DNA from: Escherichia coli
Lineage (GTDB): Bacteria; Pseudomonadota; Gammaproteobacteria; Enterobacterales; Enterobacteriaceae
Direction: 5' to 3' (one strand)
Assembly: GCF_013122565.1 (NCBI RefSeq)
Contig: NZ_CP053258.1
Length of the DNA stretch: 64,000 nt
Shown: piece by piece, positions 61,121 to 61,269 of the stretch
How positions within the stretch are numbered: position 1 is the stretch's first letter
How the letters are laid out: every line of letters begins with the position of its first letter
The notes under the pieces: model-generated
What the model was told of the DNA's origin: nothing
The model's database searches: none
The model's input: the letters and a program-made list of their open reading frames with translations, nothing else
Translations under genes and position numbers: made by a program

Positions 61121-61155
61121 TGAAGAAAAGGGCAATTCCCATCAGAGAATTGCCC
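61121..61155 (-). terminator. Rho-independent terminator downstream of the adhesin gene
   Basis: Minus strand: gggcaattc-tctgatggg-aattgccc hairpin followed by TTTTCTTC. Confidence 0.55.
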
Positions 61156-61185
61156 TCAGATTGTTGAACTGGTGCGCCTTATCTT

Positions 61186-61269
61186 GCCGGATGCGGCGTG
61201 AACGCCTTGCCTGGCCTACAGGAATATGCTGAATCACCCCGTAGGCCTGATAAGCGTAGCGCATCAGGC
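61186..61269. repeat. BIME: two inverted REP (PU) units
   Basis: GCCGGATGCGGCGTGAACGCCTTGCCTGGCCTAC ... GTAGGCCTGATAAGCGTAGCGCATCAGGC. Confidence 0.8.

Follow-up and report, generated by a model that had tools for sequence, protein, structure and literature searches.

The window analyzed here is the whole 64,000-nucleotide stretch of Escherichia coli DNA (contig NZ_CP053258.1), and the interval of interest lies between two genes read from its minus strand. The neighbors of the interval on this strand are lldD, lldR and lldP, whose annotated start (ATG) is at position 60890, with an adhesin frame upstream of them. The 3' part of the adhesin gene (61302-64000, minus strand), an ortholog of EhaG, UpaG and SadA that encodes a trimeric autotransporter, was delineated from the list of open reading frames, their translations and the RefSeq features. 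Its stop codon is TAA (61302-61304, minus strand), its frame remains open up to the end of the window, and the RefSeq labels under the adhesin match are 'YadA-like family protein' and 'ehaG: trimeric autotransporter adhesin EhaG'. Along the transcribed minus strand, the order of features is the adhesin stop codon, a spacer, a z2-type REP, a linker, a y-type REP, a flank, a terminator and the control region of lldP.

The spacer between the stop codon and the first REP (61270-61301, minus strand, approximately 32 nt) was delimited by its sequence and by allele comparison. It is of a version here called type 1 and holds a small CCATT/AATGG hairpin, whereas in the type-2 spacer of E. coli the terminator's 5' arm is repeated intact as CTAAGGGCAA. 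At the far side of the interval, a AATTGGTAGGGCCAAT palindrome (61089-61104) is located 18 nt beyond the terminator and marks the start of the lldP control region. This palindrome was invariant in all alleles and genera compared and is likely the upstream LldR operator of the lldPRD promoter, which we take to be the one named O1 after Aguilera et al. in 2008. A second similar palindrome could be observed at 60963-60979, and two LldR operators have been mentioned previously (PMC8689689). A small open reading frame of 40 amino acids (61142-61264, minus strand) spans the REPs and was set aside as a repeat artefact. No promoter could be detected in or around the element by a consensus scan; because the same scan overlooks the known lldP promoter, we consider it uninformative.

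The preliminary description of this interval had placed two inverted REP units and a terminator (hairpin and T-run) past the end of the adhesin gene at 61121-61269, and both its coordinates and its description were found to be accurate. The first unit on the transcribed strand (61241-61269, minus strand) reads GCCTGATGCGCTACGCTTATCAGGCCTAC, is placed in the iREP orientation and ends in CTAC. It was recognized by its hairpin, by alignment with K-12 (from which the unit is absent) and by its match at 29 of 29 positions to the z2 consensus, and it is of z2 type. The second unit (61186-61219, plus strand) reads GCCGGATGCGGCGTGAACGCCTTGCCTGGCCTAC and has the GTAG-first orientation on the transcribed minus strand; its sequence, an naRNA4 alignment and folding identified it as a y-type REP with three substitutions that weaken its stem. 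Both units carry the expected tetranucleotide, namely CTAC at 61216-61219 in the y unit and GTAG at 61241-61244 in the z2 unit (both as read on the plus strand). These ends face each other over a linker of 21 nt (61220-61240), which was read directly from the sequence, and the inverted arms were recovered by a repeat search. Beyond the y unit, the outer flank of the BIME (61158-61185, AGATAAGGCGC... on the minus strand), which was defined by the repeat search and by the fold of the whole element, pairs with ACGCC across the element and includes a degenerate half-REP-like stretch, CGCCTTATCTTGCC.

The z2 hairpin was predicted at -13.2 kcal/mol and contains an internal mismatch, as in the imperfect palindromes of 30-40 nt that characterize REPs. 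For the y hairpin of the window, the predicted energy was -12.9 kcal/mol (z = -0.85), compared with -20.9 kcal/mol (z = -3.7) in the closest genome, FDAARGOS_536. The y unit in the window is decayed, its three substitutions being predicted to cost approximately 8 kcal/mol relative to this nearest genome. The whole element folds at -48.6 kcal/mol, with both REPs paired into one long hairpin. This REP-REP hairpin was present in both the MFE and the centroid structures of the 3' UTR (61115-61301, minus strand), which was predicted at -75.9 kcal/mol (z = -6.2) with no shuffled sequence equally good.

A 44-nt query around the z2 unit matched at least 134,201 places, which are spread over 5425 of the 5426 complete E. 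coli genomes. The median genome has 21 of them or more (the per-genome counts are lower bounds in 1557 records). The z2 unit is a member of a dispersed high-copy family of near-exact copies, and its location here is intergenic, as expected for a REP. Among Rfam families, naRNA4 (REP-derived) matched both REP units, and STnc380 matched the stretch of operator and terminator on the opposite strand. All of these matches were below threshold (25.4, 20.5 and 22.4 bits against gathering thresholds of 59.5 and 60), which places the interval outside both families. The annotation of NC_000913.3 has no repeat features at this locus, but it also has none at the well-known element near yaaX. No match to the IHF consensus WATCAANNNNTTR could be found in or near the element; thus, binding of IHF, which had been suggested at first, is unlikely. 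The definitions of REP and BIME and the composition of BIME-2 from z2 and y units were taken from Ton-Hoang et al. (2012; PMC3333891). Judged by these definitions at the sequence level, the element is a genuine pair of z2 and y units with a short linker, BIME-2-like and present as a single unit.

The REP pair is followed by a predicted Rho-independent terminator (61123-61157, minus strand) of the adhesin gene (of yibL in K-12), which was supported by a terminator scan, by its z score and by covariation. Its stem (61128-61157, minus strand) has a GC core of GGGCAATTC/GAATTGCCC and is followed by TTTTCTT. The hairpin forms 13 pairs, with perfect 10-nt arms in the repeat search, and shows the GC stem and T-run expected of such terminators. 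Its predicted energy was -20.9 kcal/mol (z = -5.8), and none of 200 shuffled sequences was as stable. In the 600 nt scanned (60800-61400), it was the sole terminator-like site. Compensatory double changes could be observed at 5 of 11 pairs among nine sequences from four genera (Escherichia, Pseudocitrobacter, Citrobacter and Enterobacter). Across these genera the sequence differs but the position is kept: a T-run hairpin separates the stop codon of the adhesin from the operator palindrome in E. coli, E. albertii, two other Escherichia lineages, Pseudocitrobacter vendiensis, Citrobacter youngae, C. braakii and Enterobacter wuhouensis. These comparisons indicate that the conserved feature of the interval is the predicted terminator.

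An alignment of 14 E. coli alleles revealed four states of the site. First, the intact state contains z2, linker and y, with a single z2-y pair in every allele examined; its spacer is of type 1 in this window and in E. albertii, and of type 2 in CX07 and EC974. Second, the collapsed state (O157:H7, E. coli B and 13E0767) is 59 nt shorter and retains no more than the two outer arms. These arms form a hairpin with a perfect 13-bp stem and a 3-nt loop (-22 to -24 kcal/mol); the one that used to be the y arm now reads CGCATCAGGC instead of CGCATCCGGC and complements the z2 arm exactly. A simple direct-repeat deletion between ACGC...ACGC was rejected as the origin of the collapsed allele, as its predicted product differs from the observed sequence. 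Third, the empty state has no REP. Recurrent excision was not retained as its origin: all four empty genomes sampled share one junction haplotype, and so provide no evidence of recurrence. Finally, the fourth state is the deletion found in K-12. The distance from stop codon to terminator is 158 nt in intact type-2 alleles, 99 nt in collapsed alleles and 28 nt in empty alleles. Judging by their flanks, the collapsed and deleted states appear to derive from the type-2 version of the intact state.

Even sampling of the ranked matches, together with counts, gave shares of approximately 30% for the intact, 36% for the collapsed, 10% for the empty and 23.3% for the deleted allele, and either the intact or the collapsed allele was present in 3614 of 5426 genomes. 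The BIME does not go together with the presence of the adhesin, as approximately one tenth of E. coli possess the adhesin with no REP at all and more than one third have only the collapsed hairpin. Variation between strains in the number of BIMEs and in their linkers at a given locus has been reported before (PMC3333891; PMC2817692).

In K-12, yibL lies directly upstream of lldP, whereas adhesin-bearing strains have yibL, a DUF3251 gene (annotated as a SadB/YajI-family lipoprotein), the adhesin and lldP in this order. Compared with adhesin-bearing alleles, K-12 retains everything from the terminator up to the z2 unit's CTAC, including y REP and linker, and diverges beyond that point; the break in homology falls exactly at the 3' foot of the z2 hairpin. 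With CX07 as the reference, 6360 nt are replaced in K-12 by the 10 nt AACACAGTAT, and the linker and y REP of the two genomes have one difference, plus a few SNPs in the outer flank. Across the junction, the K-12 sequence is ...GTATC|TACAGGG, the 3' allele of yibL continuing with TAAGAACACAGTATC and then TACAGGG. A query built on this junction was matched at full length in 1263 of 5426 genomes, including 1224 at 99% identity or more. In the non-K-12 genomes among 40 matches spread evenly down the ranking, the match ends one base past the yibL stop codon and resumes at CTAC. The comparison of alleles thus shows, as read from the alignments, that a single 6.4-kb deletion ending at the z2 foot removed the z2 REP from K-12 along with the adhesin and the sadB-like gene.

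The left side of the junction was also examined. Over the 3' two-thirds of yibL, K-12 carries a distinct allele that differs from both B and CX07 at 11-12 of 363 nt; just upstream of this segment, K-12 is 98.6-99.6% identical to both. None of the 40 sampled matches represents a progenitor from which the K-12 allele could have arisen by deletion; among them, the yibL 3' end of the nearest genome without the deletion is 95.5% identical. No match to the 10-nt filler could be found in the yibL-lldP regions of CX07, FDAARGOS_536 and E. coli B. It should be noted that GTATC is shared by B and CX07 27 nt past the yibL stop codon, which could be chance. Recombination between two REPs was rejected as the origin of the K-12 deletion for the alleles sampled, because none of them has a REP downstream of yibL. 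A published description of the junction was not found in the literature joining yibL, lldP, upaG, sadA and ehaG.

The direction of this change could be read from outgroups. The adhesin adjoins lldP in every outgroup recovered, including Escherichia sp. E1V33 and two Citrobacter species, and the sadB-like gene and the adhesin together adjoin lldP in E. albertii, Citrobacter, Enterobacter and Pseudocitrobacter. The outgroups therefore indicate that the adhesin is ancestral at this site and that the K-12 state is a deletion, with no acquired island. The preliminary description had suggested that the BIME sits at a boundary between K-12 and accessory sequence and could mark the recombination junction. 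A boundary with K-12 does lie at the BIME, with the sequences rejoining at the CTAC of z2, and the accessory part of the suggestion fails, the adhesin being no acquired insert. It had also been argued that a REP pair present identically in strains lacking the adhesin would be unrelated to the junction; this is not what was observed, as K-12-type genomes have lost the z2 REP and break at its foot.

We also compared the occupancy of the site among species. The element was present in E. coli, E. albertii and another Escherichia lineage (L015), and an empty arrangement was found in Citrobacter, Enterobacter and Escherichia sp. E1V33. Among type-2 alleles, the intact (CX07) and empty states differ by a block of exactly 130 nt. 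At both edges of this block stands the same 10-nt sequence, CTAAGGGCAA, a perfect direct repeat that corresponds to the terminator's 5' arm and occurs as one copy in the empty state. In type-1 alleles, including that of this window, the left copy of the repeat is degenerate. At the same place, Pseudocitrobacter has a different BIME with the units in inverted order: y comes first, as an iREP, and an AT-rich linker of 35 nt separates it from a z2 REP. On the flanks of this BIME, the whole terminator hairpin is duplicated over 29 nt (93% identity).

The simplest reading of these arrangements is that the element would be an insertion upstream of the terminator with duplicated terminator sequence, a repeat of the REP/RAYT system having presumably inserted there once, in an Escherichia ancestor. 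However, given the reverse arrangement of y and z2 in Pseudocitrobacter, there may have been either one insertion event or two, and target duplication is no described property of IS200/IS605-like transposition (PMC2817692). Alternatively, the 130-nt difference may be a precise deletion between pre-existing repeats, with the empty state produced by excision via the 10-nt repeat.

It is plausible that the REP had a part in causing the K-12 deletion, and several processes could account for the breakpoint. To one of them we would tentatively give somewhat less than an even chance, namely that both the K-12 junction and the collapsed allele arose by structure-directed illegitimate events at the REP hairpins, without a transposase; replication slippage or template switching, SbcCD-type processing and gyrase breakage at BIME-2 are candidate processes. 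Such events are consistent with the position of the K-12 breakpoint at the 3' foot of the z2 stem, with the altered arm of the collapsed allele, which is as expected if template switching copied the opposite arm, and with the two independent deletions in the sampled type-2 lineage, each of which has one end in z2. REPs have reportedly been seen at the join points of Salmonella duplications by Shyamala et al. in 1990, and BIME-2 elements are reported to be gyrase cleavage sites (Espeli and Boccard, 1997, cited in PMC3333891). However, no microhomology could be observed at the K-12 junction, a 10-nt filler is present there, and the ACGC...ACGC deletion fails to give the observed collapsed sequence; for the present locus, the argument is one of sequence comparison.

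The coincidence of the breakpoint with the REP edge could also be due to chance, which is possible but in our opinion doubtful. In this case, the deletion would have been free to end anywhere in the 400-nt intergenic region that spares lldP regulation. The K-12 deletion is a single event, its left end shows no REP, and selection would limit the left end to positions past the yibL stop codon and the right end to positions between the adhesin and the terminator or LldR operator, all of which could be accommodated by chance. On the other hand, the breakpoint is located no more than 1 nt from the hairpin foot and CTAC among approximately 150-400 permissible positions, and the same small element yielded at least two other rearranged alleles.

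An unlikely origin of the breakpoint, although a specific one, is that TnpA_REP/RAYT cut z2 at its iREP-II (GGCC|TAC) and transferred the strand to a C|T downstream of yibL, thereby excising the 6.4 kb. In vitro, TnpA_REP cleaves z2 iREPs at GGCC|TAC inside CTAC and needs only C|T, cuts hundreds of nucleotides from the BIME and catalyzes strand exchange (PMC3333891), which favors this origin. In addition, the junction GTATC|TACAGGG is compatible with such a site, given one shared C, and K-12 still has the y REP to which the enzyme would bind on the same strand. K-12 carries tnpA_REP. Absence of this gene has been described for some B2 strains and for many others, mostly of group B1 (PMC3333891). 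However, the y unit of K-12, CX07 and EC974 has ATAG in place of GTAG and a weakened stem (-12.4 kcal/mol), whereas both GTAG and the stem are required in vitro for binding and cleavage by TnpA_REP (PMC3333891). Moreover, a progenitor haplotype with the left partner site was absent from the sampled genomes, and 6.4 kb far exceeds any excision demonstrated in vitro.

It is more improbable still that integration targets and duplicates terminator hairpins and that, in addition, TnpA_REP excised the 6.4 kb of K-12 at iREP-II. If true, terminator-targeting integration would be a mechanism so far undescribed for REP/RAYT elements, and the K-12 excision would be in vivo evidence of a domesticated transposase deleting host genes. 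Finally, it seems very improbable that the adhesin is an acquired accessory segment with the BIME as its recombination junction into a K-12-like backbone. In favor of this reading, K-12 types lack the adhesin, the break in homology lies inside the BIME, and the sequence right after the yibL stop codon varies among adhesin-bearing strains as in a replaceable cassette. Against it, the outgroups carry the adhesin upstream of lldP, Salmonella is known to have an operon in which sadB precedes sadA (PMC11054257), K-12 junctions represent in essence a single allele (the 1224 genomes at 99% identity or more), and some adhesin-bearing strains are without any REP.

Among known systems, the element is closest in composition to BIME-2 in the Gilson/Bachellier nomenclature (PMC3333891), with which it shares one z2 and one inverse y unit, a 21-nt linker without an IHF site, an extragenic location between two co-directional genes, and variation of copy number and linker between strains. 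The linker was compared by its length and by the absence of an IHF site; unlike BIME-2, the site has a single pair with no tandem copies, and its y unit is mutated. Paired inverted REPs are also found in BIME-1/RIP, but the element here has z2 instead of z1, a 21-nt linker instead of the long L and no IHF consensus, and does not belong to that class. The 35-nt AT-rich linker of Pseudocitrobacter at the orthologous site presumably resembles the L linker.

The element is similar to the REPINs of REPIN/RAYT systems (Bertels and Rainey; Nunvar et al., 2010, PMC2817692) in that its inverted REPs form one long hairpin (-48.6 kcal/mol), its presence or absence is polymorphic and its orthologous site is kept across species. 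However, the flanking direct repeats here are foreign to IS200/IS605-like transposition (PMC2817692), mobility at this locus is putative, and tnpA_REP lies outside the window. Similar to REPs that act as mRNA stabilizers or attenuators (for example, the malE-malF REPs), the REP stem-loops here lie in a transcribed 3' region past the coding sequence, but a strong intrinsic terminator follows within 30 nt. Attenuation by BIMEs was reportedly described by Espeli et al. in 2001, and translation-coupled effects of REPs at no more than 15 nt from the stop codon are attributed to Liang, Rudd and Deutscher in 2015; the first REP here, approximately 32 nt past the stop codon, is outside that range.

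With the REPs at rearrangement joins in Salmonella, the K-12 junction has in common that the end of a rearrangement coincides with a REP. Those joins are said to be REP-REP exchanges, as described by Shyamala, Schneider and Ames in 1990, whereas the deletion here touches a REP at one end only, the alleles examined having none after yibL. The consensus of STnc380, a Salmonella sRNA candidate, holds the LldR-operator palindrome and the terminator hairpin and thus appears to model the homologous intergenic region; nevertheless, its score was 22 bits against 60, on the strand opposite to the adhesin and lldP. naRNA4 (REP325-derived) aligns to both REPs, but with 25 bits against 60.

Taken together, we are fairly confident that the element is a single z2-y BIME in the adhesin 3' UTR, before a conserved terminator, presumably a repeat of the REP/RAYT system that inserted there and is for the most part an unstable passenger. 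From its position ahead of the terminator, the BIME would be co-transcribed with the adhesin. As RNA, its stem-loops or the long REPIN-like hairpin may slow 3'-to-5' exonucleases and reduce read-through in the direction of lldP; as DNA, it would be a candidate gyrase site, not an IHF site. As an unstable passenger, it may seed local rearrangements, the K-12 junction among them. Known roles of REPs include effects on mRNA stability, attenuation and the binding of gyrase, IHF or Pol I (summarized in PMC3333891), and for the present element such functions are inferred from other REPs. The element is absent or collapsed in almost half of adhesin-bearing strains, which suggests that it is dispensable and mainly a passenger, and the decay of the y unit in the window also argues for dispensability. 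Some observations do not fit this explanation as easily: the strong terminator right downstream supplies a 3' hairpin, so that stabilization by the REPs could be redundant, the y REP of the window is decayed, and there is a single pair where textbook BIME-2 form tandem arrays.

It is also conceivable, but improbable, that the BIME is a selected regulatory element that stabilizes the adhesin mRNA or insulates the lldP promoter from read-through or supercoiling. In its favor, the element has persisted at one site in three Escherichia lineages, E. coli and E. albertii among them, its RNA is predicted to fold very stably, and comparable roles have been documented for other REPs (PMC3333891). However, approximately 10% of E. 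coli have the adhesin without the BIME and approximately 36% have it collapsed, it is absent in other genera, the y unit in the window is decaying, and the terminator alone is conserved and covarying.

The element itself is of an already known kind, namely a REP pair after a gene and ahead of a terminator; such pairs are among the most familiar intergenic features of E. coli, and strain variation of BIMEs is documented. The end of a deletion at a REP foot and the terminator duplications are modest curiosities and not a discovery. Nevertheless, the loss of the EhaG/UpaG adhesin and its SadB-like helper appears as one 6.4-kb deletion that is common to approximately 23% of complete E. coli genomes and that fused yibL to the remnant of the adhesin 3' UTR and terminator. 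Natural variation at the site, with its intact, collapsed, empty and deleted alleles, provides a potential series for effects of REPs on mRNA stability, read-through into lldP and gyrase. If general, the flanking target duplications would bear on the unsolved question of how BIMEs integrate.

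The collapsed allele, one of four states of the adhesin-lldP spacer in E. coli (intact, collapsed, empty and K-12 deletion), was the most frequent of them and was present in ∼36% of complete E. coli genomes. In the collapsed-allele sequences of O157:H7 86-24 (L006), E. coli B (L010) and 13E0767 (L083), both outer REP arms, located between the adhesin stop codon and the terminator, fold into a hairpin of 13 bp without mismatches and a 3-nt loop, and the arm derived from the y REP is now exactly complementary to the z2 arm. This converted arm is likely to be a template-switch product.

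At the orthologous spacer of Pseudocitrobacter vendiensis (L017 2896-3104), the BIME differs from that of Escherichia: it is composed of a y iREP, a 35-nt AT-rich linker and a z2 REP, that is, the REPs stand in the reverse of the Escherichia order. The linker resembles the IHF-binding L motif. The whole terminator hairpin is directly duplicated around this BIME (29 nt, 93% identity), and the E. coli BIME is flanked by a 10-nt repeat, CTAAGGGCAA. On the basis of these two duplications, it is suggested that BIME integration was accompanied by target duplication.

A ∼270-nt insert in Escherichia sp. E1V33 (L014 2945-3215) separates the adhesin terminator from the LldR operator palindrome. Its ends are formed by GC-rich inverted repeats, CCCTCTCCCC...GGGGAGAGGGTTAGGGTGAGGGG, which match a dispersed E. 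coli family whose median number of sites per genome is 12; the insert resembles the 'box C' repeats. A search of this insert against Rfam returned zero matches. In the window itself, the Rfam family STnc380, a Salmonella sRNA candidate, had a weak match at 61064-61165 (22.4 bits; threshold 60) on the plus strand, which is opposite to both flanking genes, adhesin/sadA and lldP. Since the family consensus includes the palindrome of the LldR operator as well as the terminator hairpin, the STnc380 model appears to have been built from the homologous intergenic region between sadA and lldP.

Other palindromes were also observed in the window. At 56597-56634, in the cysE-trmL spacer, there is an REP-like imperfect palindrome, GCCGGATGTGATGCG...CGCATCTTATCCGGC, that has no CTAC end, and short perfect palindromes of the form GCCGGATG-loop-CATCCGGC are located 3' of genes at 24424-24445 and 29209-29230. 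The latter have the REP head sequence in common with REPs, but are simple terminator-like hairpins rather than full REPs. In addition, the adhesin-BIME-lldP region of E. coli was observed on contigs of MAGs labelled Oscillospiraceae, Bacteroidales and Bacillota (L012, L013 and L021), with 99-100% protein identity to the E. coli region; these copies almost certainly stem from E. coli DNA that contaminated the bins.

Over its 3' two-thirds, K-12 yibL represents a distinct allele that differs from E. coli B and CX07 by 11-12 SNPs in 363 nt, and the gene now leads into the y REP and then the adhesin's terminator (L003 2166-2540), the hairpin that follows yibL in other strains having been lost. The 280 nt 5' of this segment is 98.6-99.6% identical to the same two strains; over the 280 nt upstream of yibL, FDAARGOS_536 is only 75% identical to K-12, B or CX07. 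Moreover, the ∼550-nt spacer between yibL and the sadB-like gene occurs in at least two unalignable versions (L004 4823-5380 versus L011/L076), which part ways one base past the yibL stop codon. Such unalignable spacers, together with the 75% identity upstream of yibL, indicate that old, recombining haplotypes extend across the locus.
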